NCBI GenBank assembly: GCA_030145085.1
Contig: JAQYWG010000001.1
Span: forward strand, 1 to 60,553
Source: Thermodesulfobacteriota bacterium
Lineage (GTDB): Bacteria; Desulfobacterota; BSN033; WVXP01; G020346125
Length of the DNA: 60,553 nt
Direction of reading: 5' to 3'
The position numbers were made by a program, and so were the translations under genes. Shown in pieces: positions 26,233 to 44,815 of the stretch; position 1 is the stretch's first letter; each line of letters starts with the position of its first letter. The notes under the pieces are model-generated. The model was given only the letters and a program-made list of their open reading frames with translations. It did no database searches and was not told the origin of the DNA.

Positions 26233-27057
26233 ATGAATTACTACGAGATATTAGGACTTGAAAGGGAGCCCTTCTCCAGTTCACCTGACCCCGCTTTTTT
26301 CTACCTTTCAGATGATTACCGTGAATGTCTCCAGAGATTAGAGATCTCAATTCGGTTAAAAAGAGGGCTGAATATCATCTTGGGCGAGGTTGGGACCGGC
26401 AAGACAACCCTTTCCAGGGTTTTGTACCGAATGTTTCAAAGGGAAAGCCGGGATTTTATTTTTCACTTCATCCTCGATCCCAGTTTTCCCACGGAATTCC
26501 AATTCTTCAGCAGCCTGGTTGCATTGTTCGACATCACGCCATCTGGACGTTCAACCTTTGAGTACAAGGAGGCTATCCAAAATTACCTCTTCCAAAAAGG
26601 GGTTGATGAGAAAAAGACCATAGTGTTGCTCATTGACGAAGGTCAGAAATTGTCCAAACCCCATCTGGAGATCTTGAGAAATCTCCTCAATTATGAAACC
26701 AATGAGTACAAACTGCTCCAGCTCCTCATTTTTGCCCAGATGGAGTTTTCTGATCGAGTAAAGGGGGTAGAGAATTTTCTGGACAGGGTGAATCTGAAAT
26801 ATGTATTTCTCCCGTTAAATGAGATAAATACGAGGAAAATGATAGAATTTAGGTTAAGAGTTGCAGGCCTCAACAGTGGAAGGTCGTTATTCACGGACGA
26901 CGCCTATATGGCAATTTATATGGAAACCCTAGGCTATCCGAGAAAGATTATTAACCTCTGCCATCACGCCCTCCTCACCATGTTGATAAGGGAAAAGGAG
27001 ATTATTGACGGAGAAATAATCCGGATAACGGCAAAAGCGAGAGGGGATCAAATTTGA
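26233..27057 (+). CDS. ExeA/GspA/MshM-like AAA+ ATPase
   Basis: YYEILGLEREPFSSSPDPAFFYLSDDY...GLNIILGEVGTGKTTLSRVL (Walker A), LLIDEGQ (Walker B). First gene of the second pilus operon. Confidence 0.8.
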   Translation: MNYYEILGLEREPFSSSPDPAFFYLSDDYRECLQRLEISIRLKRGLNIILGEVGTGKTTLSRVLYRMFQRESRDFIFHFILDPSFPTEFQFFSSLVALFDITPSGRSTFEYKEAIQNYLFQKGVDEKKTIVLLIDEGQKLSKPHLEILRNLLNYETNEYKLLQLLIFAQMEFSDRVKGVENFLDRVNLKYVFLPLNEINTRKMIEFRLRVAGLNSGRSLFTDDAYMAIYMETLGYPRKIINLCHHALLTMLIREKEIIDGEIIRITAKARGDQI

Positions 27058-28250
27058 GCGAAAAGGACAAGGACATCGCTGCGACCAATCGGTTGCTGGA
27101 GGTGATTCGAGGCAAGGGTGATATAGAATCATCCCCCGTGGATCGCGAACCTCCCCGACAGGAGGGAGTAAAACCCGAGGGGCCGCCAATACGTGAAAAG
27201 AAAAAGGCCCCAAGTTCCTTCTCCCTCTTTTCGAGCAAGACAGTGGGACTGGATATCGGATCTCATTCGGTAAAATGCGTCCAACTGGAAAAAAAGGGGA
27301 CGGCGGCTTATCGATTGCTTTCGGTCGGGGTTCTCGAGATTGCGCCGGAGGGAATCAATCTCGAGGAGGATCCGAGAAAGGCGATCATATCCGCCATCAG
27401 GAAATCCATCGAAGGAATAAACCTTAAAAGGACGCCGATTACCACCGCCATTGGCGGGGTATCCACCGCTATCAGGCAGATTGAACTCCCCTTTATGACT
27501 GAAAAGGAGCTGGCCTCGGCCATAAAATGGGAGGCGCGAAATTACATTCCCTTCGATATCAACGATGTAGAATTGGATTACCAAATTATCAATACATCCA
27601 AGGCCAGCAATAAATTGGATATTATCCTTGTCTCCATCATCAAGGACTTCGTACGATACCACCTCGATCTACTCAGGGAGGTCCCCATCGATCCCCAAAT
27701 CATCGATGTCAATCCATTGGCCCTGGTGAATGCTGTGCTGTTCAACGAGGAAATAGAGAAAGATGAATACGTCGTGCTGATGGACATCGGGGATAAGAAT
27801 ACCACCTTGAGCGTCTATAGTGAGGAGGGTCAGTATTTCGTACGGAATATTATGATATCCGGCAATGATTTTACCGATGACATTATGAGGGGAATGGGAC
27901 TTTCCTACGCAGATGCCGAAAAGTTCAAGAGAAACGAGGACTCCGTTGGCTTGATTGAGACCATCAAACCATCCTTGGACAACCTGGTCAGGGAAGTTCG
28001 AAGGTCCTTGACCTTTTATGAGAATCAGGTCAAAATAAAGGGGTTTAGCAAAATCTTCCTCACGGGGGGAAGTGCGCCCCTCAAGGGTTTGGATGATTAT
28101 TTGAGCACTGAACTTGGGCTGCCCGTAACGATACTCAACCCCTTTTCGGAAATCAATGTGGAAAAGGCCTCTCTGCTATCCCCATTTGGGAACGACCTGT
28201 GCACATTAGCCTTGGCCGTTGGCCTGGCGATAAGGGGGGTAAATGGGTGA
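27054..28250 (+). CDS. pilM: PilM/MshI-like pilus assembly ATPase-fold protein with N-terminal extension of about 65 aa
   Basis: VGLDIGSHSVKCVQLEKK...AIKWEARNYIPFDINDVELDYQII. TTG start overlaps the exeA-like stop, so the true start is uncertain. Confidence 0.85.
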   Translation: MSEKDKDIAATNRLLEVIRGKGDIESSPVDREPPRQEGVKPEGPPIREKKKAPSSFSLFSSKTVGLDIGSHSVKCVQLEKKGTAAYRLLSVGVLEIAPEGINLEEDPRKAIISAIRKSIEGINLKRTPITTAIGGVSTAIRQIELPFMTEKELASAIKWEARNYIPFDINDVELDYQIINTSKASNKLDIILVSIIKDFVRYHLDLLREVPIDPQIIDVNPLALVNAVLFNEEIEKDEYVVLMDIGDKNTTLSVYSEEGQYFVRNIMISGNDFTDDIMRGMGLSYADAEKFKRNEDSVGLIETIKPSLDNLVREVRRSLTFYENQVKIKGFSKIFLTGGSAPLKGLDDYLSTELGLPVTILNPFSEINVEKASLLSPFGNDLCTLALAVGLAIRGVNG

Positions 28251-28897
28251 AATTTCAGATCAATATATATAAACCGGGGAGAAAGCCGAAAAAGGTCCCC
28301 AAGCTAACGGGAGAGGAGAGACGGGTATCCGTAGCGATGCTTGTCGTCCTGATGATCATTCTACTCGGGGTAATCTACTTGGCCTATATGAATTGGATTT
28401 TCCCATCAATAAATAAAAAGATTAGGTGGAATAAAAACCAAACGCTCGTCCTAAGTAATCAGTTAAGCGAAGTGGAGAAGGATTTGGAGAAGCATTCCAA
28501 TGAGGCAGGGCTCCTTTCCAAACTCCACATTAAGAGGGTATTGTGGTCCCGCAAGTTGGTGGATCTCAGCAGGGTCACGCCCGATGATCTATGGCTAACC
28601 GATCTTTCAATCAAGACAATTGAAAAAAAGAAAAAGGCATCAAAACAGGTCGAGAAGGAGACGTATCTCACCATCAAGGGGGTTACCTTGCCCGTGCCAG
28701 GTCGGGTACCCCTCGACAGCATCGCCCAACTCATACTGGCATTGAATGGTTCGAAATCCTTTAGTCAGGACTTCGAGGCGGTCAAACTCGTCTACACCCA
28801 CCTTACCAGGGAGAAAGACCGCGATATTATGGAATTTGAGCTCTCGAGCAAGTTGAGCGGCAGCTCTCCGCTCAGGAAAGAAAAGGCGTCGAGATGA
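28247..28897 (+). CDS. PilN-like fimbrial assembly protein
   Basis: GTG at 28247 overlaps the pilM2 stop (GTGA). It has one TM segment (VSVAMLVVLMIILLGVIYLAYM), a coiled coil, and a C-terminal pattern LWLTDLSI...LTIKGVT. The ORF-track start at 28199 lies inside pilM2. Confidence 0.65.
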   Translation: MKFQINIYKPGRKPKKVPKLTGEERRVSVAMLVVLMIILLGVIYLAYMNWIFPSINKKIRWNKNQTLVLSNQLSEVEKDLEKHSNEAGLLSKLHIKRVLWSRKLVDLSRVTPDDLWLTDLSIKTIEKKKKASKQVEKETYLTIKGVTLPVPGRVPLDSIAQLILALNGSKSFSQDFEAVKLVYTHLTREKDRDIMEFELSSKLSGSSPLRKEKASR

Positions 28898-29802
28898 AAT
28901 CTTCCATTTCCACAAGAAACATGATAATAGCCCTGGTGATCTTTTTCTTCGGGGTGTCATCCCTCTTCTACTTCTTCGACTATCGCCGATATTTGAACAA
29001 GGCGAAAAAGGGGATGAAGACGATATCCCTCCTCAACGGGAGGGTTGAAAAGGCCGTTCGGGAGGTCAATGAACTCCAGGAGAGGATCGAGCGATTCAAC
29101 AAAGAGGAGGTGAACGTCGACTTCTTCAAGCGGCACCAAATCCCCCCGGAGAGGCGGACACCTACCTTTCTCGAAAAAATAAATGACTTGGTCAATCGAC
29201 TGGGGATCAAAACCATTATGGTGAAACCCATGCCCCAAGAGGAATCCCCCGATTATATTCGGTATCCCTTTTTGGTCGAAACGAGATCCAAATACGAGGA
29301 AATCGCCAAATTCATCGATAGCCTCGAGAACAGTTTTAAACTCAACTTAGACGACCTTCACATTGAGAATGATCCCAAGGCCCCCCTCTGGCATCGCCTC
29401 AAATTCACCGTTAGTACCTTCGAATTGAAAAGCGCCGAATCCTCACCTTCTGATGAAACGGGGAAGGTGGAGGCCGCCCCCATCCAAATGGTGGTAAAGG
29501 ACGATATCACGGTGAGGAGGGATCCCTTCCTGGAGAAGGAGGTGCCGAAGGGGGAGAAGAAGGTTACAACCGTGTCCCTCCCCAAGAGACGGCGAAAGAG
29601 GCGACCTCCTTTAAAACTCAAGGGCATCATCGATATCGCGGGAAAGAAGGTGGCCATCATGAACGACAAGATCGTTAGGGAAGGGGATTGGATCGCGAGA
29701 CACCGCATCGTCCGGATTGGCGAGGATGAGGTTATAGCGGTCTCCGGAGGGAAAAAACGCACCCTCAAGATAGAAGAGTTGGTCAAAACCAAATTGAGGT
29801 AA
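28894..29802 (+). CDS. PilO-like / PilP-like fusion protein
   Basis: TM segment, coiled coil and PilO-type core (YPFLVETRSKYEEIAKFIDSLENSFKLNLDDLHI). Then a linker with RRDPF and a PilP/GspC-type beta domain (LKLKGIIDIAGKKVAIMNDKIVREGDWI...RIVRIGEDEVIAV). Confidence 0.6.
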   Translation: MKSSISTRNMIIALVIFFFGVSSLFYFFDYRRYLNKAKKGMKTISLLNGRVEKAVREVNELQERIERFNKEEVNVDFFKRHQIPPERRTPTFLEKINDLVNRLGIKTIMVKPMPQEESPDYIRYPFLVETRSKYEEIAKFIDSLENSFKLNLDDLHIENDPKAPLWHRLKFTVSTFELKSAESSPSDETGKVEAAPIQMVVKDDITVRRDPFLEKEVPKGEKKVTTVSLPKRRRKRRPPLKLKGIIDIAGKKVAIMNDKIVREGDWIARHRIVRIGEDEVIAVSGGKKRTLKIEELVKTKLR

Positions 29803-29808
29803 GCAGCT

Positions 29809-31212
29809 ATGAAAAGGATTTCTTTTCCCATTACCCTATGTCTGATTTTTCTCCTCGCCCTCGCGTCCACGGGATTGGGCCAGTCTCCCCAGGTCAAAAA
29901 TCCCCTGGAAAGTGACCTGCCTTTCTCCTTGAAGGTAAGAGATGTTGATATTCGGGATGTTCTGACCATAATCGCCGAAGAGTATGGTTTGAACCTCATC
30001 CTTTCGCCGGCGGTTTCGGGAAGAATCACCTATGATATCGAGAACACCACACTGAGAGATGGGTTTAACGCCATACTCAGGAGCAGCGGCTTAACTTACA
30101 TTATTGAGGGGAATATCATCCGGGTGGACGAACAGGCGGAATTGCGTAAGAAGCTGAAAACCGAGCTGGATATCTATAAGGCGCGCCAAGAGCTGAGAGA
30201 AGCGGCGAAACTGGAGAAGCCGTTGGAGACGACCTATGTCGACCTCAACTATATCGGAACGACCCTCTCCAAGGAGAAGGGGACGGAGACCACCGATTTG
30301 CAGGATGCCATGGAGAAGTTGTTGAGCCACAACAAGGAGAAAGGGGTTGATAGAGGGGCCAACGTCAGCATCATCAAGAAAACCAATACCTTGGTCATTA
30401 CCGACGTTGAGGAAAATGTTCGCGAAATTGCGGCGATGGCCAAAAAATTGGATCTGCCAACGGAACAGGTAAGGATTGATGCGAGGATTGTGGAGACAAG
30501 TCGCGATTTCTCCCAGGAATTGGGCATTAAATGGGGCGGAACGGCACAAACCCGGGTGGGCAGTACGCGGGATAGGAAGGGTAACCTTACCTTCGATGGG
30601 TCTGCGGGTGGGGATATCGTGAATCTACCCGTGATAAATCCCGCGGGCGTCTTTAGCCTGGGCTGGCTCTCGTCGACTGCGGTTCTCCGAAACCTGGATG
30701 TTGAGCTCTCGGCCCTTGAGGCGACGGGCGACGTGAAGATCGTCTCCAAGCCCTCAATCCTCGTCGTCGAAAGTCAGGAGGCGGAGATATTTGTTGGAGA
30801 GAAAGTTCCCGTTGCGGAGGGGTATGATGCCGAGACGGCCCAAGTCAGTATTCGGCTGGAAGACGTGGGTACGAAGTTGAGGATCACCCCTCAAATCACC
30901 CGGGATGGCTCAATTTTTATGCTGGTGGGGGTGGAAACGAGTGAAATTTCAGGTGAAACCGTAATTCAGGGACAACCTTACGACACTCTCGGAACGAAGA
31001 GGGCAGCCACACAGGTCTTGGTAAAGGACGGACAAACCGTGGTCATTGGAGGTCTTTTGAGCACCCGCAAAGAGGAAAATCGAGACCGCGTCCCCTTTCT
31101 GTCCAGGGTTCCCATTGTGGGCCTTCTCTTCAAGAGCAAGGAGGATATCTCGGAGTATCGGGAGCTGATGATATTCATTACGCCCCAAATCGCCACTCAG
31201 GTGGGGGGGTGA
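29809..31212 (+). CDS. Short secretin (PilQ/MshL/GspD family) without AMIN domains
   Basis: Signal peptide. N0 (LKVRDVDIRDVLTIIAEEYGLNLIL). Secretin core (VRIDARIVETS...VPFLSRVPIVGLLFK). 467 aa. Confidence 0.9.
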   Translation: MKRISFPITLCLIFLLALASTGLGQSPQVKNPLESDLPFSLKVRDVDIRDVLTIIAEEYGLNLILSPAVSGRITYDIENTTLRDGFNAILRSSGLTYIIEGNIIRVDEQAELRKKLKTELDIYKARQELREAAKLEKPLETTYVDLNYIGTTLSKEKGTETTDLQDAMEKLLSHNKEKGVDRGANVSIIKKTNTLVITDVEENVREIAAMAKKLDLPTEQVRIDARIVETSRDFSQELGIKWGGTAQTRVGSTRDRKGNLTFDGSAGGDIVNLPVINPAGVFSLGWLSSTAVLRNLDVELSALEATGDVKIVSKPSILVVESQEAEIFVGEKVPVAEGYDAETAQVSIRLEDVGTKLRITPQITRDGSIFMLVGVETSEISGETVIQGQPYDTLGTKRAATQVLVKDGQTVVIGGLLSTRKEENRDRVPFLSRVPIVGLLFKSKEDISEYRELMIFITPQIATQVGG

Positions 31213-31246
31213 GGAGGGAAACCCCGAAATGAAGGCATACTGAACA

Positions 31247-32989
31247 ATGGCCCATCCCAAAAGCTACACGTTGAGTTACAAATCTCTCGGCGCGCTGTTG
31301 GTCGATAACAAGGTGTTCACCCAGGAACAGCTTGACAAGGCCCTCGATCGACAGAGAAAGAAGGGGGGGCTTTTAGGGGATATCATAATCGAAATGGGCC
31401 TCGCCTCTGAGGGTCAGGTCCTCGGGGCCCTTGCGCAACAGCTCAGCATCCCACACCTAACCCCCGACGAAGTTGTCTTTATCGATCCCGAGGTCATTAG
31501 GCTCGTTCCCGAGCGCATTGCGCGACAGTCCATGGCAATACCCGTTTCCATACGGGACAATACCTTGACCGTGGCCATGGTGAACCCCTTCGATATCATC
31601 GCCATCGATGACCTCCGGACTATTACCAATTATAAGATCAATACGGCCATTATATCCAAATCGGGATTGGAAGCCCTCATCAATCGATTCTATGGGGTCA
31701 GTGAGCGGGAATCTAGCCTGGAGGATGTCTTAAAGGATGTATCGGAGACCCACCTTGAGCTCAAAAAGGAATTCGACGATGATCGCGAGGTTAACCTGGA
31801 GAGGCTCCGGGAGCAGGTGGAAGAGGCCCCCATTGTCAAATTGGTGGATTACATCATATCGAACGCCATCAACGAGCGGGCGAGCGATATCCACATCGAG
31901 CCCCAGGAGACACGGTTGAGCATTCGCTACCGGATTGACGGGGTACTCCACGATATCATTTCTCCGGCAAAGGCACTCCAGATGGCCATCGGTTCTCGAA
32001 TCAAGATTATGTCCAACATGGATATCGCCGAAAGACGCCTTCCTCAGGATGGCCGTTTTACCATAAAGCAGGGGTTTCGGGAGGTTGACCTGAGGGTATC
32101 CACGTTGCCCACCATCTTCGGCGAAAAGGTGGTAATGAGGCTCCTGGAGAAGGGGTCCCTTTCCCTGGACATAGACAGCCTGGGATTCGGCGACGGCCAA
32201 TTGGAAATTTTTCGGAGCTACATATCAAAACCCCACGGGATGGTTCTCCTCACGGGACCAACGGGAAGCGGAAAGACGACCACCCTCTATTCGGCCCTGA
32301 CGGAGATTAAATCCTCTCAGACCAATATCGTTACGGTGGAGGATCCCGTGGAGTATCAGATCAAGGGGATCTACCAGGTTCAGGCCAATCCCAAAATCGG
32401 CCTCACCTTTGCCAACGGTTTACGGTACATTCTTCGCCAGGATCCGGATATCATCATGGTGGGCGAGATCCGGGACTTGGAGACGGCCGAGATGGCCATT
32501 CGGTCCGCCCTTACCGGGCATCTCGTATTCAGCACCCTGCATACCAATGACGCCGTGGGAACCATTGTCCGACTGATCAACATGGGTGTGGAGCCATATC
32601 TCGTCTGCTCTTCTCTGAGTTTGGCCGTCGCCCAGCGCCTGGTGCGAAAGATCTGCCCTCACTGCAAGGAGTCATACAAGCCAACCAAGGAGGTGCTGCG
32701 GAGCCTCGGAGTCGATGAAAAGCCTCAAAAGAACTTTCTCTTTCACCAGGGCAAGGGGTGCCATAGATGCAAGGGCACGGGCTATTACGGTAGGACGGCT
32801 ATCTGCGAAATTTTGGAGATGAAGGCTCCAGTTCGAAACGCCATCCTCAACGGGGCCGATATCGAGGGAATGAGGCAGGTGGCCCTTGAGCTGGGGATGA
32901 CCACCCTCAGGAAAGGCGGCTTGCAGAGGGTGCGAGATGGGATTACAACTCCGGAAGAGGTTTTCAGGGCGACCATCGAGGAAGATTAA
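31247..32989 (+). CDS. pilB: Type IV pilus extension ATPase (PilB/MshE/GspE family) with MshEN-like N-terminus
   Basis: T2SSE_N region. Walker A GPTGSGKTTT. Asp box VEDPVEY. Walker B IMVGEIRD. His box. Tetracysteine CPHC...CHRC. Confidence 0.94.
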   Translation: MAHPKSYTLSYKSLGALLVDNKVFTQEQLDKALDRQRKKGGLLGDIIIEMGLASEGQVLGALAQQLSIPHLTPDEVVFIDPEVIRLVPERIARQSMAIPVSIRDNTLTVAMVNPFDIIAIDDLRTITNYKINTAIISKSGLEALINRFYGVSERESSLEDVLKDVSETHLELKKEFDDDREVNLERLREQVEEAPIVKLVDYIISNAINERASDIHIEPQETRLSIRYRIDGVLHDIISPAKALQMAIGSRIKIMSNMDIAERRLPQDGRFTIKQGFREVDLRVSTLPTIFGEKVVMRLLEKGSLSLDIDSLGFGDGQLEIFRSYISKPHGMVLLTGPTGSGKTTTLYSALTEIKSSQTNIVTVEDPVEYQIKGIYQVQANPKIGLTFANGLRYILRQDPDIIMVGEIRDLETAEMAIRSALTGHLVFSTLHTNDAVGTIVRLINMGVEPYLVCSSLSLAVAQRLVRKICPHCKESYKPTKEVLRSLGVDEKPQKNFLFHQGKGCHRCKGTGYYGRTAICEILEMKAPVRNAILNGADIEGMRQVALELGMTTLRKGGLQRVRDGITTPEEVFRATIEED

Positions 32990-32998
32990 GGGACCCAG

Positions 32999-34234
32999 AT
33001 GCCACTGTATTCTTATACGGCCAAGAGGGGAGACGGAAGAAACCTAAGGGGTGACCTGGAGGCAATCAGCGAGCTGGAGGTAATAGAGACATTACACCGG
33101 CGGAACCTCACCGTCCTCGACATCGCGGAGAAGAAAAGTGCCCGGGAAAAGGACCTCGTGGGCCGGTTCTCAATGAGTGATCCCCTCTTCGGAGGGGGGG
33201 TTAAACACGATGAGATTTTCCTCTTTGCGAGTCAAATGTCGGCCATGGTTGAAGCCGGGCTGCCCTTGCTTCGATGTCTGACGAGCTTCGGCAATGAGGT
33301 TGAGAACCCGCGGTTCAAGAGGGTGATGGATTCCGTGAGCATTGATGTCGAGGAGGGAAGTACCTTTTTCGATGCCCTGTCCAAGCATCCTAAGGTATTC
33401 AGCAAACTCTTCGTCAACATGGTCAAGGCCGGCGAAGTCAGCGGACGGTTGGATCAAACCCTTGCTCAACTGGCCAGTTATCTGGAGAGTACCGCAAACC
33501 TTCGGAGGAAGGTGAAGGCAGCCGTCACATACCCCCTTTTTCTCATCGGATTTACCATCTTCGCCATCATCCTCCTGGTAGCCAAGGTGGTCCCTGTATT
33601 CCAAAAGATTTATACAGGGGCGAGGGTACGCCTTCCGGTCCCCACTCGGATATTGATAGGCAGCAGTGTCGCTATTCGTGACTACTATTGGCTTATCCTG
33701 TTGATCGCCGCAGGAATCGGGATTCTCATTTATGCCGGGCTTCAAACCGAAAGGGGTCGGCTTTTCTGGGATAAGCATAAGCTCCGGATTCCCATCTTAG
33801 GACCATTGATGCGGAAATATTCCCTGACCAAATTTACCAGGACACTGGGGGTTTTGCTCAATAGTGGAGTTCCCATCTTGGGTTCCCTTGATCTGGTTGC
33901 GGAGACCGCTGGCAATAGGATGTTGGAAAGGGCCATTCTTGGAAGCTCAGCGTCCATTGAGCAGGGCAGTGGGTTTGCCGAAGCCCTCGCTGAAAGGAGA
34001 GATGTATTTCCGGAGATGGTGGTTCAGATGTCCGCCACGGGTGAGGAATCGGGGACGTTGGACAACATGGTGAGCAAAGTGGCAAATTTCTACGAGAAAC
34101 AGATAGAGGCGAGCATCACCACCGTGACGTCTCTCATCGAGCCTATCCTCGTCATCTTCATCGGAACGGTGGTGGGAGGAATTTTGCTCTCCATCTTCCT
34201 CCCCATATTCAAGATGGGGCGGGCAATTCACTGA
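32999..34234 (+). CDS. pilC: Type IV pilus platform protein PilC/GspF
   Basis: 411 aa with two T2SSF repeats (MVEAGLPLLRCL, LLNSGVPILGSL) and three TM segments. Confidence 0.94.
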   Translation: MPLYSYTAKRGDGRNLRGDLEAISELEVIETLHRRNLTVLDIAEKKSAREKDLVGRFSMSDPLFGGGVKHDEIFLFASQMSAMVEAGLPLLRCLTSFGNEVENPRFKRVMDSVSIDVEEGSTFFDALSKHPKVFSKLFVNMVKAGEVSGRLDQTLAQLASYLESTANLRRKVKAAVTYPLFLIGFTIFAIILLVAKVVPVFQKIYTGARVRLPVPTRILIGSSVAIRDYYWLILLIAAGIGILIYAGLQTERGRLFWDKHKLRIPILGPLMRKYSLTKFTRTLGVLLNSGVPILGSLDLVAETAGNRMLERAILGSSASIEQGSGFAEALAERRDVFPEMVVQMSATGEESGTLDNMVSKVANFYEKQIEASITTVTSLIEPILVIFIGTVVGGILLSIFLPIFKMGRAIH

Positions 34235-35729
34235 TGTGGGGACTTCCCGTCCCCGTAATGGATAGTTCGATTCTGAAGATCACCCCTTTCCTTTTCCCCT
34301 CCATCTCGTTCATTACCCTAATACGGCCTCCATGAGCGGTGACGATCTGTTGGGCAATGCTCAAACCGAGTCCGATGCCTCCGGGCTTGGTGGTGAAGAA
34401 AGGATTGAATACCCGTTCGCTGTCCTCGACGGATATGGGGTCTCCCGTATTGAAGACGTCGATCATAACGCGCTGCTGCGTCGACGGACCGGACCGATGA
34501 GGACCGGTAGTATCTTGCCCCCTATCCAGGGACAGCTGCACGATATCCGTAGTAACCTGAACGGTTCCTCCTTCAGGGGTGGCCTCCAGTGCGTTGTTGA
34601 TGATATTGAGGATCGCCTGGGTCATCTTATCGCCCTCCACGGCGATCTCGGGGAGGTCCCCCCGGTAATGTTCCTTGACGATGATCTTTTTTTCGGGAAA
34701 CCCGGTTTTCGCCAGGGAGACCGTCTCCCGAACGATTTCCTCTATGTCCCGTTGTTCAAACGCGAAGGTTGAGGGTTGGGCAAAAGTCAGAAGCTCTTCC
34801 ACGACTTTATTCAACCTGTCGATCTCCTTGATGATTACCTCGACGTATTCCGCCCTTCCACCCCTCTCGATGATATCCTCTTGCAGGAGTTGGGCCAACC
34901 CCCTCAGAGACCCCAGAGGGCTCCGAATCTCATGGGCCAGCCCGGCCACAAGGCTACCCAACGAAGCGAGCCGATTGATTCTCTCGATTTCCCGTTGAAT
35001 CTCTTGAATCTCCCCCAGGTCACGGAAACTGGCCACCACCTCCACCAACTTTCCCTCGGCACCGCCCAATAAGGCCGTCCTGATTCTCATGGCCAACTTC
35101 TTTCCCTTATCGGTCATGACCGTCACATCTTCCACTGAGCTGGGCATTTCCTTCTCAATCCCAAGAAGTATCATATCCGTGAGCGCTTTGTTGGATTTAT
35201 GGATGGGGAAGAGATCCGTGAAGTGTCTTCCCACTACGTCCCGGGTATCATGATCAAATATGGTCTCAGCAGCAGGGTTGAAGGTCGCAATAATGCCATC
35301 GGAGTTGATGGTTACCACCGCACCGACAGAAGTCTCCAGGAGGTATCGATTCAATGAAGAGACCATTTGATTGTAGGCCTGAACCAGTTGGTTGATCTCC
35401 TCCTGGGGGAAGAGTTCCAAGCTTTGGCTGAGATCTCCTTGGGCGACGGATTGGACCCCTCTGGTTAGCTGTTTGATCGGTCTCTTGATGGCATAGGTGA
35501 GCACTACACCCGAGAGGCACGCCACGAATCCTCCGATCAAAACGTAAATTCGCATTTGTTGCGTTGCCGCCTTGACTTTGGCGATGGTTGGGGGGTTGTT
35601 GGGGGATCGGAGGAGCTCTCGTTCATTGATCTCAATGGCGAGGAATCCCGTAAAGAGGACCAGGAGTGTAGTGAACACCTGGATGGCGATGAAAATACGG
35701 ATTCCGACCAACCTCGACCGTATCTTCAT
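34209..35729 (-). CDS. TM-HAMP-PAS sensor histidine kinase (paralog A)
   Basis: Two TM segments with a short loop. HAMP (PIKQLTRGVQSVAQGDLSQSLE). PAS. H-box AGLAHEIRSPLGSL. HATPase (GIGLGLSIAQQIV). The 3' end overlaps the pilC 3' end by 26 nt. Confidence 0.88.
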   Translation of the reverse strand: MKIRSRLVGIRIFIAIQVFTTLLVLFTGFLAIEINERELLRSPNNPPTIAKVKAATQQMRIYVLIGGFVACLSGVVLTYAIKRPIKQLTRGVQSVAQGDLSQSLELFPQEEINQLVQAYNQMVSSLNRYLLETSVGAVVTINSDGIIATFNPAAETIFDHDTRDVVGRHFTDLFPIHKSNKALTDMILLGIEKEMPSSVEDVTVMTDKGKKLAMRIRTALLGGAEGKLVEVVASFRDLGEIQEIQREIERINRLASLGSLVAGLAHEIRSPLGSLRGLAQLLQEDIIERGGRAEYVEVIIKEIDRLNKVVEELLTFAQPSTFAFEQRDIEEIVRETVSLAKTGFPEKKIIVKEHYRGDLPEIAVEGDKMTQAILNIINNALEATPEGGTVQVTTDIVQLSLDRGQDTTGPHRSGPSTQQRVMIDVFNTGDPISVEDSERVFNPFFTTKPGGIGLGLSIAQQIVTAHGGRIRVMNEMEGKRKGVIFRIELSITGTGSPHISELPAPS

Positions 35730-35736: not shown

Positions 35737-37284
35737 TTAATCCCCTTGGTCTAAAAGGTATCGGACGAAGATATCGACCAACTCGGGATCGAATTGCTTC
35801 CCCTTCTGCTCCTTGAGGACGGCAATAACGTCATCCTTGGGAAGGGGCCCCCTGTAAGGTCGCTCGGTGGTCATGGCGTCATAGGTATCCGCTATGGCAA
35901 TGATCCGAGCCCCCAACTCGATCTCTTTCCCCCTCAATCCATCTGGGTATCCAGTACCATCGAACCTCTCATGATGGTGGCGAATGATGGGCTGGGCGGG
36001 CTCCAAAAAAGGGATCACTCGGATAATATTTTCGCCCTTTGCCGGGTGTTCCTTTATCTGTGTATATTCCTCATCGGTGAGATCTCGATCCTTGTGAATG
36101 ATGGCATCGGGGATTCCGATCTTCCCGATATCGTGCAACACACATGCGTATTCAATGGTAGAGGTGATTTCACTTAGCAGTCCCAGGTGTCTGGCCATTT
36201 CAACGGCATAGGTCTTCACCCTTTCGGAGTGCCCCCTTGTATACCGGTCCTTCTCCTCAACGGCCCTGGCAAGGGCTTTCATGGTCCGAAAATAACTCCT
36301 CTCTATCTCAATGCTCTTCAGTTGATTGTTGATGGCAACGGAAGCCGTATCAGCGATGAAATCCAAATTTTCCAAATCTTCCTCAACATAGGGTTGATCC
36401 CCAAAACGATTCGTTACGTTAATGATCCCCAATGAGAGGTTGGTAGCCTTGAGGGGAGCTTGCATGAGCGGAAAGCTCATAAAGGACCTATACTGGGAAT
36501 ACCGATCCGATTCCGCCTTCATGGAGCCGATGTCATCGACTCTGATGGCCTTCCCCGTTTCCAAAATCTTTCCCGCAATTGCCTCACCCCTCCTTATCCT
36601 CGTCTTTCTCACTATCTCTTCTTCCAATCCAATGGCACCCTTAATGCTGAGGTATTCACCTTTTTCGTCGAGCAGCATAATGGATACCCTCTTACTATAC
36701 ATGAAATCGGCCACGAAATTCACCACGGAATTGACTACGTCCTCGAGGTTATCCATTGAATTGAGCTGGTTGGCGAACTTGTAAATGGCGAAGATGGTCT
36801 TCGTCTGTTCCCGCACCTTCAGCTCTAAACTCCGCTGATACTCTTTGATTTGATCATTGAGCCTCTTCTTCTCAAGGGCCCTCTTAACGGTATTGATCAG
36901 GATTTCCCGTTCAATGGGCTTGGTGATATAATCATAGGCCCCCGCCTTAATGGATTCCTGGGCCGTATCCAGGGAGGGTGCACCTGTGACCATGATAATC
37001 GGGATATCCCTGCGCTGGTCTTGTAGCCTCTGGAGGAGTTCGAGACCGTCCATCTCCTCCATGCGGATGTCCGAAATGACCGTATCGAAGGAGTTCTCCT
37101 GAAAGAGCTGGAGGGCATCCTTGGCGTTATCGGCCGAGGTTACCTCATATCCCTCCTTTTCCAAACGCTTTTGGATGGATTTCCTGATCGTCAACTCATC
37201 ATCGACCACGAGGATCCTCGACCTGTTCAACCCTTGATCCTCATTCGTCATCTTCGATATCTCCTTCATATACGGGAAGATCAA
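35737..37284 (-). CDS. Response regulator REC-GAF-HD-GYP (predicted c-di-GMP phosphodiesterase)
   Basis: REC (VISDIRMEEMDGLE). GAF segment. HD-GYP signatures HDIGKIGIPD and HHERFDGTGYPDGL. Alternative starts at 37269 and 37251 reduce the overlap with the upstream kinase. Confidence 0.9.
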   Translation of the reverse strand: MIFPYMKEISKMTNEDQGLNRSRILVVDDELTIRKSIQKRLEKEGYEVTSADNAKDALQLFQENSFDTVISDIRMEEMDGLELLQRLQDQRRDIPIIMVTGAPSLDTAQESIKAGAYDYITKPIEREILINTVKRALEKKRLNDQIKEYQRSLELKVREQTKTIFAIYKFANQLNSMDNLEDVVNSVVNFVADFMYSKRVSIMLLDEKGEYLSIKGAIGLEEEIVRKTRIRRGEAIAGKILETGKAIRVDDIGSMKAESDRYSQYRSFMSFPLMQAPLKATNLSLGIINVTNRFGDQPYVEEDLENLDFIADTASVAINNQLKSIEIERSYFRTMKALARAVEEKDRYTRGHSERVKTYAVEMARHLGLLSEITSTIEYACVLHDIGKIGIPDAIIHKDRDLTDEEYTQIKEHPAKGENIIRVIPFLEPAQPIIRHHHERFDGTGYPDGLRGKEIELGARIIAIADTYDAMTTERPYRGPLPKDDVIAVLKEQKGKQFDPELVDIFVRYLLDQGD

Positions 37285-38731
37285 TGGTCACTTTGGTGTA
37301 TTCCCCTTCTTTGCTATCGAAACGAATAGCGCCCTTGTGTTCCTGGATGATATTAAAGCTGATGCTCAAGCCCAAACCGGTCCCCTGACCCTGTTCCTTT
37401 GAGGTGAAAAAGGGGTTGAAGATCTTGTCCATATCTTCCTCGGGTATGCCGATGCCCTTGTCATGAAATTCGACACGTACATATTTCCTACCGTTCTCCT
37501 CTACCTGATCGGTTCGGATAAGGAGGGTTTTATCTTCATGGGGACTGGGATATTTCTGATTCAAGGCGTGCCGCGCATTGCTGAGCAGGTTGATGAAGAC
37601 CTGTTCGATTTGATTGAAGCTTCCCCTGACGAAGGGCAGTGTCTCCTGGATCTCCTTGACGATTTTAATACGATCGAGGTGGATCTGATGTTCGGTAAGG
37701 TTGAGAGAGGAGGCGATGACCGAGGAAATGTCGAGGGTCGTGTAAGTCTTTGAATCCCTCTGTCTGGAGAAGTTGAGCAGATCCTGGACAATGGTCTTAA
37801 TCCGCTGGCTGTTCTCGATGATTTCCCGGATTTCCTCCTGTTGTTCCTCGTTATTCTCGGGGATCTCCTCTTGGAGAAACTCGGCGTTGCTGAGGATACC
37901 CGAAAGGGGATTGTTGATCTCGTGGGCCACGCCCGCGGCCAGTTCTCCCAGGGAGGCCATTTTATCTGCCTGAATCAGCTGCATCTCCATCTGTTTCTTC
38001 TCGGTCATATCCCTGACCACGCTCAGATATCCGATGATTTCCCCGGTTTCCTCGGTCAACGTGGTCATCACGCACCATCCGTCGATGGAATGCCCCTTGC
38101 TATTGGAATAGACGATCTCACCTTGCCAGCGTCCTTTTTTCATGGCGGATTCCTGCATGTGCTGGATGAGATCCGGCTTCATCTTGGGCGAGTGGAGCGT
38201 ACTCAGGCCCTTTCCCACGATATAGTCCTTGCCGTATCCGAACATCCGCTCAGAACTTTCGCTCCAGAGGGTAATCCGGCCCTCTCGGTCCGTGGTCATG
38301 ATGGCATCATCGGCGGCATAGAAGACCTTTCGAAGGTGTTCCTCCGACTTCTTCAGGGAGGAAAGCATCTGGTTATATGCCTGCACCAACTGCGAGAACT
38401 CAAACTGACTGGGCACGTCGATGGTCTTGGTGAAATCGCCCACAGCGGCCGATTGAACGCTTTCGATCAGCTTTTTGATAGGCTTGGTTATGGCCAAGGT
38501 GAGGGCGATGCCCGACAGACACGCAATAACGCCTCCGATCAACACCTTGACTCGGATGGTCTGGAGCGACTGCTTTACCTGCCAAATTGTGGGGGGCTTC
38601 TTTCGGCGCAAGAGGGCAATCCGGTTGGTCTCGATGGCCCAAAATCCGGTGCCGAGGACGATGAGGGTGGTGAAAACCTGGGTGAGGATAAATAATCTTA
38701 AACCTAAGCCGCCAAATCTCTTTTTTTCCAT
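37241..38731 (-). CDS. TM-HAMP-PAS sensor histidine kinase (paralog B)
   Basis: The N-terminal 100 aa align with the 34209-35729 kinase (QVFTTLxVLxTGFxAIE...LIGGxxACLSGxxLTxAIxxPIKxL). H-box AGVAHEINNPLSGI. HATPase GTGLGLSISFNII. Confidence 0.88.
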   Translation of the reverse strand: MEKKRFGGLGLRLFILTQVFTTLIVLGTGFWAIETNRIALLRRKKPPTIWQVKQSLQTIRVKVLIGGVIACLSGIALTLAITKPIKKLIESVQSAAVGDFTKTIDVPSQFEFSQLVQAYNQMLSSLKKSEEHLRKVFYAADDAIMTTDREGRITLWSESSERMFGYGKDYIVGKGLSTLHSPKMKPDLIQHMQESAMKKGRWQGEIVYSNSKGHSIDGWCVMTTLTEETGEIIGYLSVVRDMTEKKQMEMQLIQADKMASLGELAAGVAHEINNPLSGILSNAEFLQEEIPENNEEQQEEIREIIENSQRIKTIVQDLLNFSRQRDSKTYTTLDISSVIASSLNLTEHQIHLDRIKIVKEIQETLPFVRGSFNQIEQVFINLLSNARHALNQKYPSPHEDKTLLIRTDQVEENGRKYVRVEFHDKGIGIPEEDMDKIFNPFFTSKEQGQGTGLGLSISFNIIQEHKGAIRFDSKEGEYTKVTIDLPVYEGDIEDDE

Positions 38732-38808
38732 GATTTTTCTTTTCTCTTTAAATCAAATTGTAGGCTCAAAATGTCACCGTGTCAAGAAACAAGGAGCTAT
38801 TGATATTG

Positions 38809-38837
38809 TTGCAAATATTTTGCCAAAATGCTAGAAT
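38809..38837 (+). promoter_or_regulatory. Sigma-70-like promoter TTGCAA-N17-TAGAAT for the divergent activator gene
   Basis: The -35 lies at 38809-38814 and the -10 at 38832-38837, about 38 nt upstream of ATG 38875. It physically overlaps the minus-strand sigma-54 element. Confidence 0.4.
38810..38825 (-). promoter_or_regulatory. Sigma-54 promoter TGGCAA-N5-TTGCA for the kinase/HD-GYP/kinase operon
   Basis: The minus strand reads ttTTGGCAAaatatTTGCAacaa with correct GG-N10-GC spacing, about 80 nt upstream of ATG 38731. Confidence 0.55.
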
Positions 38838-38874
38838 TATTTCAATTTTAACCTTTTGGTATGGGAACCAGTCC

Positions 38875-40269
38875 ATGGCTCAAGAGAGGATATTGGTCGT
38901 AGAGGACGATCCCAGTATGAGCTTCTTTCTCTCCGAGGCAATGCAAAAGGAGGGATATCGGGTGGATGCCATCGCCTCCGGGGAGGAGGCCCTGGAGAAG
39001 ATCGGGCAAGATCGGTTCAATTTGGTGATTTTGGACCTGAAACTCCCCTCAATGGATGGGATGGAGGTTCTGGCAAACATTAAGGTGACCAATCCGGAGA
39101 TGGCGGTGATCATGGTTACCGCACATGGCTCAAAGGATATCGCCATCGAGGCAATACGGAAAGGTGCCTACGATTACTTCACCAAGCCTTTGGATATCAA
39201 CGAGATGAGGGTAGTGGTTAAGCGGGCTCTGGAGAGGGAACACCTTCAGAATGAACTCAGACAACTGAGGGAGACGGTCGAAAAGAGGAGGGGGTTTTTC
39301 AATATTGTGGGAAACAGCAAGGAAATGAGGGAGGTCTTCGATATGGCGGAGACCGTCTTCGATAATGACATCACCGTCCTGATTACCGGGGAGAGCGGAG
39401 CGGGAAAGGAATTGATCGCGGAGGCCATTCATTACAATAGCCCACGGAGGGCAAAACCCTTTGTCAAACTAAACTGCGTAGCCATTCCGGAGACCCTTCT
39501 GGAAAGCGAGCTCTTCGGCTACGAGAAGGGGGCCTTCACCGGCGCAACCAGGCAGAAGCTGGGCAAATTTGAACTGGCCAACCAAGGGACCCTGTTGCTG
39601 GACGAAATCGGGGACATGAGCCTGGCAACCCAGGCCAAGCTATTGAGGGTGCTGCAGGAGAGGGAAGTGGAAAGGGTAGGGGGGGTTAAGCCCATTAAGG
39701 TCGATGTCCGGATTATCGCCTCCAGCAATCAAGATCTGGCTCAACTGGTCATGGAAAAACGCTTCCGGGAAGACCTCTATTTCCGGCTCAACGTTCTTCC
39801 CATCCACATTCCTCCCCTGAGGGAGCGTGTGGAAGATATTCCCCTTTTGGTGGATCATTTCGTGAGCTTATCCAAGACAAGGTTTCACAAGGATATCGAG
39901 GGGTTTTCTGAAGATGCCATGGATTTCTTGATCACCTATTCCTGGCCTGGAAACGTGAGGGAGCTGGAAAATATCGTGCAGAGGGCTATTATTTTGGCCA
40001 AGGAACCGGTCATCCAGGAATGGGACCTGCCCCCGGAGATACGCGGGCAGACGAAAAAATCTCACTTCGACGTGGAGAAGCTTGAAACGGATATCCCATT
40101 AAACGAAAAGGTGGAGATGATCATAGCCGAGGTCGAAAAAAAGCTCATTATTCAGGCATTGGATAAGGTTGGTTGGAAAAGGGAAGAGGCGGCCTCTCTC
40201 CTTGGGACAAGCCTCAAGACCCTCTATAACAAGATGAAGAAATACGGGCTTTTTGATCAATCCTCCTGA
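38875..40269 (+). CDS. Sigma-54-dependent response regulator, PilR-like by position upstream of the pilin gene
   Basis: MAQERILVVEDD start (the ORF-track extension from 38779 lacks homology-like content). REC (LVILDLKLPSMDGM). GESGAGKE. GAFTGA loop ELFGYEKGAFTGA. C-terminal HTH. Confidence 0.92.
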   Translation: MAQERILVVEDDPSMSFFLSEAMQKEGYRVDAIASGEEALEKIGQDRFNLVILDLKLPSMDGMEVLANIKVTNPEMAVIMVTAHGSKDIAIEAIRKGAYDYFTKPLDINEMRVVVKRALEREHLQNELRQLRETVEKRRGFFNIVGNSKEMREVFDMAETVFDNDITVLITGESGAGKELIAEAIHYNSPRRAKPFVKLNCVAIPETLLESELFGYEKGAFTGATRQKLGKFELANQGTLLLDEIGDMSLATQAKLLRVLQEREVERVGGVKPIKVDVRIIASSNQDLAQLVMEKRFREDLYFRLNVLPIHIPPLRERVEDIPLLVDHFVSLSKTRFHKDIEGFSEDAMDFLITYSWPGNVRELENIVQRAIILAKEPVIQEWDLPPEIRGQTKKSHFDVEKLETDIPLNEKVEMIIAEVEKKLIIQALDKVGWKREEAASLLGTSLKTLYNKMKKYGLFDQSS

Positions 40270-40441: not shown

Positions 40442-40457
40442 TGGCATGATAGTTGCT
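40442..40457 (+). promoter_or_regulatory. Sigma-54 promoter TGGCAT-N5-TTGCT of the major pilin gene
   Basis: aaTTGGCATgatagTTGCTTa lies 57 nt upstream of ATG 40514. A strong Shine-Dalgarno (GGGAGGAAG) precedes the start. Confidence 0.72.
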
Positions 40458-40513: not shown

Positions 40514-40975
40514 ATGAAAAAGAGAAGGATCTTAAATCACAGAGGTTTTACCCTGGTGGAATTGATGGTGGTCATCATCATCGTCGGTATTCTGGCCGCT
40601 ATCGCTGTTCCCCTGTATACGGGATACGTCGAAAGGGCAAGGGTAACCGAGGCAACCAGTATCATGGGGGCCATCATTACCTCTCAAAAGGTGGAGATGC
40701 AGAGGACGACCAACTTTTACAATGCAGCGGATATCGCTACTTTTAGGAACAAAGGAATTGATATAAGCGATACGAAGTTTTTCACCTATGTAACATCCAT
40801 GGATGTGCCAGTAGCCGGGGGCTTTCAGGCCGTCGCCACCTCTACAGCCGATTTCGGTCAAGCAGGGGGGACCATAACTTACCAGTATAACCCAACAGTC
40901 TCTCCTCCTGGAAGCTGGGCGGCCGACGGGTCAATCATACTGGACGACATGTTGCCCACTGAGCCGAGCGGCTAA
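40514..40975 (+). CDS. pilA: Type IV pilin (type IVa-like, no cysteines)
   Basis: Leader [11 protein letters not shown], then the cleavage and methylation motif [37 protein letters not shown] with Glu at +5. Confidence 0.92.
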
Positions 40976-41003
40976 TGCAAACATTACTCCAGTAAACTTC
41001 CGT

Positions 41004-41034
41004 GAGAAGGGAGGTGGTTCTTCCCTTCTCTTTT
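41004..41034 (+). terminator. Strong hairpin plus short T-run after pilA (terminator or attenuator)
   Basis: GAGAAGGGA-(9 nt loop)-TCCCTTCTC followed by TTTT, 29 nt after the pilA stop. Confidence 0.6.
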
Positions 41035-41055
41035 CCCGATATCGGTCCCATCTGA

Positions 41056-41565: not shown

Positions 41566-41578
41566 AGAAAGCCACACC

Positions 41579-42148: not shown

Positions 42149-42173
42149 CATACCGCCTGCCGGGCCACGAGGT

Positions 42174-44597: not shown

Positions 44598-44815
44598 AGA
44601 ATAATAACTTCCCTATCATTCCCCATAGTTAGCTCTATTTTCCCCATAAAAATCTTCCAGCCTCCAGTTCGTCGTTTCCCGTCAAGTTTCCCTGCATAAC
44701 CCCTCCTCATCATAAAGGTAGTTTCACAAATTATCAATACTTTCAAATAGTTTTATTTCATTTGATGTATTTTCTATGAGATATAGGGTTTTTTCGTCTA
44801 AATCTTAATTTTTCC

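Follow-up and report, generated by a model that had tools for sequence, protein, structure and literature searches.

The MshEN domain is already known to be widespread on PilB-type motors. In V. cholerae, the pilus extension ATPase MshE carries at its N-terminus two tandem 24-residue motifs with a 5-residue spacer (5HTL). It has Arg at both motif heads (position 1), Gly at both turns (position 10; G18 and G47) and Asp at position 108. Mutation of R9 leads to a loss of at most about 5-fold (PMC5013675). In the published ITC series, which mutated G11 and G40 and never the turn glycine, G11L abolishes binding, G40I costs 72-fold and L29V costs 4-fold. The phosphodiesterase CdpA, an EAL-type enzyme encoded elsewhere in the V. 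cholerae genome, lowers c-di-GMP and so inactivates the MshE motor (PMC8851539). The PilF ATPase of T. thermophilus carries three GSPII domains. The site of GSPII-B (8PDK) is free of Arg: Lys and Leu stand at the heads of motifs I and II, with Gly at the turn and a D266-R268 pair, and c-di-GMP is bound with a Kd of 6 nM. Restoring Arg lowers this affinity, hydrophobic residues at position 1 raise it, and the consensus has been widened to (R/K/L)LG (Neissner 2024; PMC11731258). In PilF, Ile at both positions 17 and 21 costs 2.4-fold, and D266A costs 4.5-fold. The GSPII-A domain of the same protein (9G1W) does not bind. It has Asn at the D108/D266 position and Ser (S39) at the head of motif II, it has lost both Gln (H33, R62) and the second Gly (A41), and an ideal N-cap (L4-T5-I6-G7-D8-K9) locks its helix 1, which is extended. 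In a weakened, engineered GSPII-A construct, putting Ser39 back at the head of motif II abolished binding (PMC12002112). The PilB proteins of M. xanthus, Geobacter and Chloracidobacterium have a single MshEN domain on a type IVa-like, deltaproteobacterial-type motor, with Arg or Lys at the motif heads. M. xanthus and Geobacter PilB have Asn at the motif I turn, and c-di-GMP binding is reported for M. xanthus PilB, as it is for that of C. thermophilum. The in vitro ATPase rates of PilB and MshE are little affected by c-di-GMP.

We analysed a window, that is, the whole stretch of 60,553 nucleotides, from an uncultured Syntrophobacterales-like bacterium. Its pilus locus contains the following features:

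26233–31212, plus strand: ExeA/MshM-like AAA_22 ATPase, PilM, PilN, PilO and PilQ secretin, in the same operon upstream of pilB (Pfam and NCBIfam)
31247–32989, plus strand: PilB/GspE-class pilus extension ATPase of 580 aa, an MshEN domain followed by a T2SSE ATPase domain
31283–31354, plus strand: MshEN motif I, SLGALLVDNKVFTQEQLDKALDRQ, residues 13–36, part of the NF053729 match
31355–31369, plus strand: spacer RKKGG, residues 37–41
31370–31441, plus strand: MshEN motif II, LLGDIIIEMGLASEGQVLGALAQQ, residues 42–65, part of the NF053729 match
31442–31696, plus strand: C-terminal alpha/beta subdomain of MshEN, residues 66–150 (PF05157 and AlphaFold model), with N113 at 31583–31585
32999–34234, plus strand: PilC platform protein (Pfam T2SSF, 8e-60)
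34209–35729, minus strand: histidine kinase 1 (HAMP-PAS-HisKA-HATPase), whose 3' end overlaps that of pilC by 26 nt
35737–37284, minus strand: REC-GAF-HD-GYP response regulator, probable c-di-GMP phosphodiesterase (Pfam Response_reg, GAF, HD_5)
37241–38731, minus strand: histidine kinase 2 (HAMP-PAS-HisKA-HATPase, by domain matches)
38779–40269, plus strand: PilR-like sigma-54 activator, REC-AAA-HTH (Pfam Sigma54_activat 8e-73, Response_reg, HTH_8)
38810–38825, minus strand: sigma-54-like -24/-12 element TGGCAAAATATTTGCA upstream of the kinase/HD-GYP/kinase operon, one mismatch to TGGCAC-N5-TTGCW
40442–40457, plus strand: sigma-54-like -24/-12 element TGGCATGATAGTTGCT, 57 nt upstream of the pilin gene
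40514–46189, plus strand: pilin (40514–40975), two minor pilin-like genes, an 807-aa protein and a second pilin (45755–46189), by N_methyl motif and translations

The ATPase domain of the motor occupies residues 190–574 (T2SSE, 4e-142) and carries the Walker A sequence GPTGSGKT and a CPHC...CHRC tetracysteine; Pfam places MshEN (PF05157) at residues 68–154. The protein scores just under both equivalog cut-offs, with 644 bits for TIGR02538 pilB (cut-off 676) and 625 for gspE (cut-off 630). Its neighbours, the pilMNOQ, pilC and pilin genes, mark it as a probable PilB-family motor, serving a T4a-like or MSHA-like pilus. The genome encodes two other PilB/GspE paralogs. The order of the AAA_22 ATPase gene and pilMNOQ is the same in orthologous loci; the ExeA/MshM-like ATPase is common to this locus and the V. 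cholerae msh operon, in which the gene order differs. The N-terminus is not an artefact of a wrong start codon, because an in-frame TGA lies 3 nt upstream and the orthologs share the start.

The first-pass annotation had described tandem 24-residue motifs joined by RKKGG at this N-terminus, and they are indeed there, at residues 13–65 (bases 31283–31441), with the same motif and spacer lengths as in MshE. Residues 14–65 match positions 2–53 of the 53-position model NF053729 ('c-di-GMP_motif', MshE-related) with 56.1 bits (E 2e-15, cut-off 38). A six-frame scan of the 3.14 Mb genome found only five such motifs, and the PilB copy tops them with 60.5 bits; a chance match is thus ruled out by the score and by the number of motifs per genome. 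The alignment to validated MshEN domains that the annotation had called for matched, by phmmer, the N-domains of MshE, PilF, and Geobacter and M. xanthus PilB with E-values of 1e-15 to 1e-41. From the curated model, these matches to solved N-domains of MshE, PilF and PilB and the predicted fold, the MshEN domain is genuine.

All core contact residues are kept (L14, G15, L29, L33, Q36, L43, G44, L62 and Q65), which rules out a degenerate XpsE-like motif; clearly degraded motifs, e.g., 'IADxLL...RLLKLL', do occur in many relatives (Verrucomicrobiota, Riflebacteria and others). Both motifs have Leu-Gly at positions 2–3 (L14-G15 and L43-G44, corresponding to L10/G11 and L39/G40 of MshE) and Gln at position 24 (Q36, Q65). 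The Leu clusters at positions 17 and 21 are also present (L29 and L33; V58 and L62), with Val58 as a conservative change. Among 71 orthologs of at least 67% identity, contact positions are invariant or nearly so and surface positions vary freely. Invariant are S13, L14, G15, L17, L18, V23, L33, R35 and Q36 in motif I, G40 and G41 in the spacer, and L43, G44, M50, L62 and Q65 in motif II; L42 is present in 93%. G15, G44 and Q65 remain invariant in 56 homologs down to about 33% N-terminal identity.

The deviations listed earlier (S13 and L42 at position 1, K22 at the motif I turn) are real. S13 falls outside both the original Arg consensus and the extended R/K/L form; L42 is not Arg and fits the extended (R/K/L)LG consensus. 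K22 replaces the turn Gly of motif I, and G51 keeps that of motif II. Beyond that list, the protein has F24 and A53 at position 12, V58 where the consensus is Leu, and N113 where MshE has D108 and PilF D266; the equivalence of N113 and D108 is derived through PilF D266 (GSPII-B alignment and residue numbering) and not from a direct alignment with MshE. Thus, the protein differs from MshE at both heads, the first turn and position 113, and from GSPII-B in Ser at the first head, Lys22 and the N113-F115 pair. With GSPII-B it shares Leu at the head of motif II in an Arg-free site, and unlike PilF it carries a single domain of this kind. It resembles M. xanthus and Geobacter PilB in the single domain and the non-Gly turn, and differs from them and from Chloracidobacterium PilB in lacking Arg or Lys at the heads. 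With GSPII-A it has in common Asn at position 113 and a Ser head, here in motif I.

For comparison, we took other motifs with an intact core from related loci. Motif II most often starts with Leu (15 of 35). Motif I has Arg or Lys at its head in just 14 of 30 and Lys or Arg at its turn in 9 of 35. Position 1 varies widely (R 9, Q 6, P 5, K 5, H 3), and position -1 is often Lys (18 of 23). The annotation held that loss of the leading Arg makes binding uncertain. This does not apply to motif II, given the Leu precedent in PilF, and it stands for Ser13. L42 occurs with N113 in 66 sequences, and Arg or Lys at 42 with Asp at 113 in about 45. This covariation mirrors the R38-D108 contact of MshE and indicates that the guanine pocket is maintained. 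S13 and K/R22 are fixed throughout the clade, which looks like selection and not decay.

The AlphaFold model of the N-domain (pLDDT 88) predicts a four-helix bundle (helices 14–20, 26–39, 43–49 and 55–66) followed by an alpha/beta part, with residues 1–10 disordered. In the Foldseek search, c-di-GMP-bound MshE (5HTL; TM 0.76–0.82, 34% identity) and ligand-bound GSPII-B (TM 0.74–0.81) ranked at the top, and the non-binders scored lower (GSPII-A 0.56, XpsE 0.58–0.64). The training of AlphaFold came after the release of 5HTL, and likeness to the bound state therefore adds no independent evidence. In the model, helix 1 begins at L14 and Ser13 takes the N-cap position, where it could compete for the guanine-reading amides. 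Neither a T/S-x-x-D/E capping box nor an N-terminal extension of helix 1 is predicted, in contrast to the locked helix 1 of GSPII-A.

The neighbouring REC-GAF-HD-GYP protein has the architecture that the annotation gave it; the distance of 1.5 kb downstream holds from the pilC stop, and from the pilB stop the gene lies about 2.75 kb away, on the minus strand. Two kinase genes enclose it in an operon (kinase/HD-GYP/kinase) that converges on pilC, diverges from the PilR-like gene, and is wedged between pilC and the PilR-like activator with the pilin genes. The ligand set of PmGH (E185, H189, H221, D222, H250, H276, H277 and D305, with the HHExxDGxGYP motif) served as the reference. Aligned to PmGH (4MCW) and V-cGAP3 (5Z7C), the protein keeps seven of the eight metal ligands as well as D183, K225 and GYP; its motifs against 4MCW are GH, LHDIGK, EHP, HHHERFDGTGYP and IADTYD. 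The sole ligand change is at E185, where the protein has Tyr; this assigns it to the Y/F subfamily, for which a binuclear centre is predicted, whereas PmGH belongs to the trinuclear E/D-T-G group. Judged by these residues, the regulator looks catalytically competent. The receiver domain (Response_reg 3e-33) keeps D28/D29, D72, T100 and K122. An NCBIfam name, 'NosR family', was set aside, as the match (253 bits, cut-off 400) covers the HD-GYP part only. Like the RpfG- and RpfX-type REC-(PAS/GAF)-HD-GYP regulators and PmGH (GAF-HD-GYP), the protein has an intervening sensor domain and conserved catalytic motifs; unlike them, it is encoded in a pilus locus, between the genes of two paralogous kinases. 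The pil clusters of M. xanthus, Geobacter and Chloracidobacterium have pilT and pilSR and no embedded HD-GYP gene (M. xanthus operon listing), and CdpA is encoded away from the msh genes.

The HD-GYP module is syntenic between pilC and pilR/pilA in loci whose PilB is 70–97% identical. One locus of 88% identity (L014), in which the HD-GYP gene is missing, was ruled out as a counter-example, since it has a 100-N scaffold gap after the first kinase. Other GAF-HD-GYP or GGDEF genes recur beside related pilB loci in other clades and phyla. The regulator is a conserved component of the pilus locus and not a chance neighbour. The genome encodes four to five GGDEF, no EAL, seven HD-GYP and about 16 PilZ proteins; this gene content shows a c-di-GMP network. 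For the sigma-54-like element, the window as a whole gives 16 matches against 18 expected, which is not above chance; the two listed are suggestive by position alone, upstream of the HD-GYP operon and of the pilin gene.

On the basis of these residues and the model, the N-domain of PilB probably binds c-di-GMP. Most likely, one molecule would be bound so as to span the N-terminal ends of helices 1 and 3. Judging from the homologous complexes of MshE and GSPII-B, main-chain amides of G15/A16 and of G44/D45 would read the two guanines, the L29/L33/L43 and L14/V58/L62 clusters would stack on the bases, and Q36 and Q65 would hold the ribose-phosphate. The second guanine may be capped hydrophobically by L42, as by L196 of GSPII-B, and N113 would take the place of the Asp partner of Arg in domains of the Arg type. 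S13 would be unable to stack; invariant K12 or Y11 may do so, or else the first site may just bind less strongly. As in MshE, the occupancy of the site would be expected to adjust how active or engaged the extension motor is. The operon is a likely locus-specific sink for c-di-GMP: kinase input would lead to phosphorylation of D72 in the receiver and switch the HD-GYP domain, and the resulting shift in c-di-GMP would shift the output of PilB. The analysis itself establishes the identity of the domains, the conservation of residues, the fold as predicted, the catalytic residues and the synteny; binding, its affinity, the direction in which it would shift extension and the coupling of this receptor to this phosphodiesterase are inferred. 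Taken as a whole, the reading of the N-terminal 150 residues as a functional MshEN receptor that tunes the motor, with the HD-GYP operon as its likely local sink, has in our estimation a slightly better than even chance of being right.

It is possible that the MshEN fold is kept and physiological c-di-GMP binding is lost, the domain acting instead in docking or autoinhibition with PilM, PilC or another partner, whose contacts would explain the conservation. We consider this unlikely. S13 and K22 lie outside the consensus, F24, A53, V58 and N113 deviate further, and a position-1 Ser was incompatible with binding in the GSPII-A reconstruction. On the other hand, known non-binders have lost several core residues (G11V, G40L, L54H, L58C and Q61V in XpsE; H33, A41 and R62 in GSPII-A), while here every core Gly, Leu and Gln is kept, invariant or nearly so, and positions 42 and 113 covary. 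GSPII-A is a near-consensus sequence that fails to bind for structural reasons, and sequence alone is therefore not predictive; the extended helix 1 and the capping box that go with this failure are not predicted here. The model also superposes on the N-domain of X. citri PilB bound to PilZ (TM 0.70–0.74), and the many PilZ proteins of the genome could sense c-di-GMP instead, although the window contains no PilZ gene. The ATPase activity of CtPilB rises without its N-domain, which is consistent with autoinhibition independent of a ligand.

Binding by PilB could also be correct and the HD-GYP regulator not its dedicated partner, the operon being a PilS/PilR-like unit for pilin transcription or acting on a global pool that serves PilZ and other receptors. 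This is possible, if on the doubtful side. The operon and the PilR-like activator gene are divergently transcribed, and one sigma-54-like element lies ahead of the operon and another ahead of the pilin gene. The HD-GYP gene is in a separate convergent operon, it is one of seven, PilZ receptors are many, and c-di-GMP diffuses. Moreover, two related pilus loci (56–58% identity) have no HD-GYP gene within 10 kb. Against this, the operon keeps its place between pilC and pilR/pilA in loci with as little as 70% PilB identity, and about 0.05 HD-GYP genes are expected by chance within 20 kb (seven in 3.14 Mb). Beside related loci a different architecture, HAMP-GAF-HD-GYP, has been recruited, and HD-GYP or GGDEF genes abut MshEN-type pilB in Nitrospirota and Omnitrophota. 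We regard as very improbable that the variant site prefers another cyclic dinucleotide, e.g., 3'3'-cGAMP, which the HD-GYP enzyme would degrade. MshEN binds cGAMP weakly, and the best solved-structure match of the enzyme is the cGAMP-specific V-cGAP3 (145 bits vs 138 for PmGH), with which it shares Tyr at the E185 position. However, a gap of 7 bits between PDB matches is not discriminating, and the G-x amide pairs that read guanine O6/N7 are kept in both half-sites, so that both look guanine-specific. A stronger form of the receptor reading is improbable, less so than the cGAMP one. It would make the clade-fixed set S13, K/R22, L42 and N113 a distinct Arg-free subclass of MshEN, in which a Y11-K12 lid replaces the position-1 stacker and gives very high affinity or altered kinetics, within a hard-wired local circuit whose sigma-54 co-regulated phosphodiesterase, fed by two kinases, sits in the pilus locus.

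As a further case of second-messenger control of pilus extension, a functional MshEN receptor on this motor is plausible and ordinary, and it adds no new principle. With its conserved place between pilC and pilR/pilA, the kinase/HD-GYP/kinase operon makes a clean candidate, on genomic grounds, for c-di-GMP signalling that acts locally on a pilus motor, and it lies in an uncultured syntroph lineage without EAL enzymes. The site itself is a natural test case for which 'key' positions of the 53-residue motif predict binding: it is fixed in its clade, neither head is Arg, motif I opens with Ser, and the turn of motif I is Lys or Arg. The answer would sharpen the annotation of thousands of PilB, GspE and related proteins.

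The pilB gene is the sixth in a plus-strand run encoding an ExeA/MshM-like AAA ATPase, PilM, PilN, PilO, PilQ, PilB and PilC. A minus-strand operon convergent with pilC encodes a HAMP-PAS histidine kinase, a REC-GAF-HD-GYP regulator and a second, paralogous kinase. Divergent from this operon are genes for a PilR-like sigma-54 activator, a pilin, two minor pilin-like proteins, an 807-aa protein and a second pilin. The features considered are as follows.

31247-32989, plus strand: PilB-type ATPase of 580 aa, an ORF with T2SSE and MshEN
31283-31441, plus strand: tandem MshEN motif, PilB residues 13-65 (SLGALLVDNKVFTQEQLDKALDRQ, RKKGG, LLGDIIIEMGLASEGQVLGALAQQ)
35737-37284, minus strand: REC-GAF-HD-GYP response regulator, middle gene of the kinase/HD-GYP/kinase operon

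The residues 13-65 quoted in the first-pass annotation agree exactly with the translation of 31283-31441. The HD-GYP gene, placed there 1.5 kb downstream, is present; this distance is measured from the end of pilC, the gap to the pilB stop being 2.75 kb, and the gene is on the opposite strand. Sigma-54-like -24/-12 elements lie 57 nt upstream of the pilin gene and about 80 nt upstream of the kinase operon; such matches are not enriched over the whole window, and just the placement of these two counts. Among public records, the closest are MAGs under the labels Syntrophobacterales or Thermodesulfobacteriota. A long PilO-like protein (302 aa, 28894-29802) with a basic linker and a C-terminal extension, and the 807-aa protein (42174-44597), last in the pilin operon and without a Pfam match, are both kept in orthologous loci.

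The T2SSE ATPase domain of PilB is recognized at 4e-142, and the Pfam MshEN model covers residues 68-154. NF053729, an NCBI curated c-di-GMP motif model separate from Pfam MshEN, matches residues 14-65 with 56.1 bits (cut-off 38). When all 3.14 Mb of the assembly were scanned in six frames, only five such motifs emerged, that of PilB scoring highest. Since the match exceeds the cut-off and is the best of just five, it is, judging from the sequence, homology rather than chance. The N-terminus is genuine and not an annotation artefact, because an in-frame TGA stands 3 nt upstream of the pilB ATG and ortholog starts coincide. A strong Shine-Dalgarno sequence, GGAGGGA (region 31213-31246), serves a 4-codon mini-ORF, ATG AAG GCA TAC TGA (31229-31243), which stops 3 nt ahead of the pilB ATG; the latter has no Shine-Dalgarno sequence itself. 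Among the compared pil loci, the mini-ORF is retained in L010-L013 (90-97% identical) and in the orphan paralog L090, changed in L014 and L015, and absent from L006 and L007. The arrangement may represent termination-reinitiation coupling.

In MshE, each guanine is recognized by backbone amides, those of Gly3 and of the residue after it, and is stacked by three clustered Leu residues together with the Arg at position 1; Gln24 binds the ribose-phosphate. Binding is abolished by G11L and weakened 72-fold by G40I, 10-38-fold by Leu to Ala, about 10-fold by Gln to Ala, 4-fold by L29V and at most about 5-fold by R9 mutation (PMC5013675). PilB has the core contacts L14, G15, L29, L33, Q36, L43, G44, L62 and Q65, with V58 as a conservative replacement at a core Leu position. 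The first-pass annotation held that loss of the leading Arg makes binding uncertain. From the alignment, the two missing arginines are not equivalent. For L42 the objection falls, as this is the state of L196 in GSPII-B of PilF, which binds with a Kd of 6 nM without any Arg and with lower affinity when Arg is reintroduced; the motif-head consensus has been formally widened to (R/K/L)LG (PMC11731258). For S13, outside this consensus, it stands. Restoring Ser at the motif II head of an engineered PilF GSPII-A fragment gave no binding, in a background that also had Ala for the adjacent Gly (PMC12002112). K22 stands at the turn-Gly position, which is absent from the published MshE ITC mutants; M. 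xanthus PilB, reported to bind c-di-GMP, has Asn there. Among 35 other core-intact motifs from related loci (a biased sample of sequences alone), Leu is the commonest motif II head (15/35), the turn is K/R in 9/35, the motif I head is R/K in just 14/30, and Lys at position -1 is frequent (18/23).

Across 71 orthologs of at least 67% identity, K12, S13, L14, G15, L17, L18, V23, L33, R35, Q36, G40, G41, L43, G44, M50, L62 and Q65 are 100% conserved, and the surface positions 27, 30, 56 and 60 vary freely. Ser13 is invariably accompanied by non-Gly at position 22. G15, G44 and Q65 are also invariant in a 56-sequence alignment reaching down to about 33% N-terminal identity. Residues 42 and 113 co-vary: Leu occurs with Asn in 66 sequences, and Arg/Lys with Asp in about 45, R42 and D113 being borne by a subclade at 77% identity. 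N113 is the counterpart of D266 in PilF and D108 in MshE, which make a secondary contact (about 4.5-fold in PilF). The covariation of 42 and 113 mirrors the R38-D108 contact seen in MshE chain B and argues for coherent remodelling of the second guanine pocket and not for its loss. The 77%-identical paralogs P0041-P0045 (e.g., L090, GCA_012974965.1, 4515-6257) are orphan pilB genes with R42/D113 instead of L42/N113; the L090 copy has no pil neighbours.

An AlphaFold model built from the 56-sequence alignment has a mean pLDDT of 88, with residues 1-10 disordered and helix 1 beginning at L14. Predicted helix 1 has the short form of ligand-bound MshE, and the model lacks the N-capped extended helix that obstructs the site in GSPII-A. 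The top Foldseek matches were c-di-GMP-bound MshE (TM 0.76-0.82) and bound GSPII-B (0.75-0.81), with the non-binders GSPII-A (0.56) and XpsE (0.58-0.64) lower. The resemblance gives only weakly independent support, because AlphaFold training postdates the release of the MshE structure 5HTL.

The HD-GYP domain, aligned to 4MCW (PmGH, an active HD-GYP enzyme) and 5Z7C (V-cGAP3), retains H189, H221/D222, K225, H250, H276/H277, D305, D183 and GYP (PmGH numbering). The sole departure, E185 to Tyr, places it in the Y/F subfamily with a predicted binuclear centre. The receiver has D28/D29, D72, T100 and K122, and REC-GAF/PAS-HD-GYP is a recognized architecture. The genome has 4-5 GGDEF, seven HD-GYP and about 16 PilZ domains; its ATPases of the PilB/GspE class number three, and there are four PilT-like matches. 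Since EAL domains are absent from the whole genome, the HD-GYP enzymes appear to be its sole recognizable c-di-GMP hydrolases. Four further MshEN-motif proteins are encoded at C333:5280-6392 (+), C72:2799-5384 (-), C3:2964-5048 (+) and C333:20088-21884 (-) of the source assembly: a DUF4388-like protein with stand-alone MshEN_N; an 862-aa chain-length-determinant/tyrosine-kinase-like protein with an inserted MshEN_N sharing with PilB the motif I turn Lys and motif II head Leu; a GspE-like ATPase with an N-terminal extension of roughly 130 aa; and a second PilB adjoining a PilT-like gene, with degenerate motif II (SFGANL...SRY).

In loci with PilB 97, 93, 91, 85 and 70% identical, the kinase/HD-GYP/kinase module likewise lies between pilC and the gene for the sigma-54 activator. 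Its apparent loss in the 88%-identical L014 (CP070774.1, a MAG deposited as 'chromosome') is an assembly artefact, because a 100-N scaffold join (11554-11653) lies right after the first kinase and there is an abrupt change of gene content at this join. In clades further away, at 54-57% identity, a different HAMP-GAF-HD-GYP gene is found 3-5 kb downstream, once with a GAF-GGDEF gene too; two loci have no HD-GYP gene within 10 kb. In 80 loci from named genomes, HD-GYP lies within 7 kb of a pilB homolog in nine and GGDEF in about 11; in some Thermodesulfovibrio and Omnitrophota loci such genes directly abut pilB. About 0.05 HD-GYP genes would be expected by chance within 20 kb (seven in 3.14 Mb). 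The association looks functional, although this is no proof of a private circuit. In the Thermodesulfovibrio MAG loci L072 and L086 (8632-10850), two same-strand HD-GYP genes lie immediately 3' of the pilB homolog. Omnitrophota and Planctomycetota MAG loci (L051, L056, L057, L060, L062, L064, L067, L079, L085) repeat one gene order: GGDEF is followed by a stand-alone MshEN_N protein of roughly 150 aa with a near-perfect motif (e.g., KQLGELLVERGVI...GGLIGQILIGLGY...Q), and this by one or two PilB-like ATPases that themselves have degenerate motifs (RLTEIL...). Such an arrangement hints at a c-di-GMP sensor acting in trans on the motor.

We consider it fairly probable that the PilB N-domain binds c-di-GMP at physiological affinity. 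That the locus HD-GYP regulator is the principal controller of this domain is a tentative reading, close to an even call. The two kinases would sense signals and set the phosphorylation state of D72, which together with the GAF domain would switch the HD-GYP hydrolase. The c-di-GMP level thus reached would determine occupancy of the MshEN site and hence pilus extension, and the PilR-like branch would govern pilin supply. If MshE and the V. cholerae phosphodiesterase CdpA are taken as the analogy (PMC8851539), hydrolysis would favour retraction. In vitro, c-di-GMP scarcely changes ATPase rates even for the motors of the model systems. MshEN on PilB-type motors is already known and widespread, and a curated HMM recognizes it; what is new, as read from these genomes, is a PilB member whose combination of residues is fixed in the clade and whose locus offers a neat link to a predicted phosphodiesterase.
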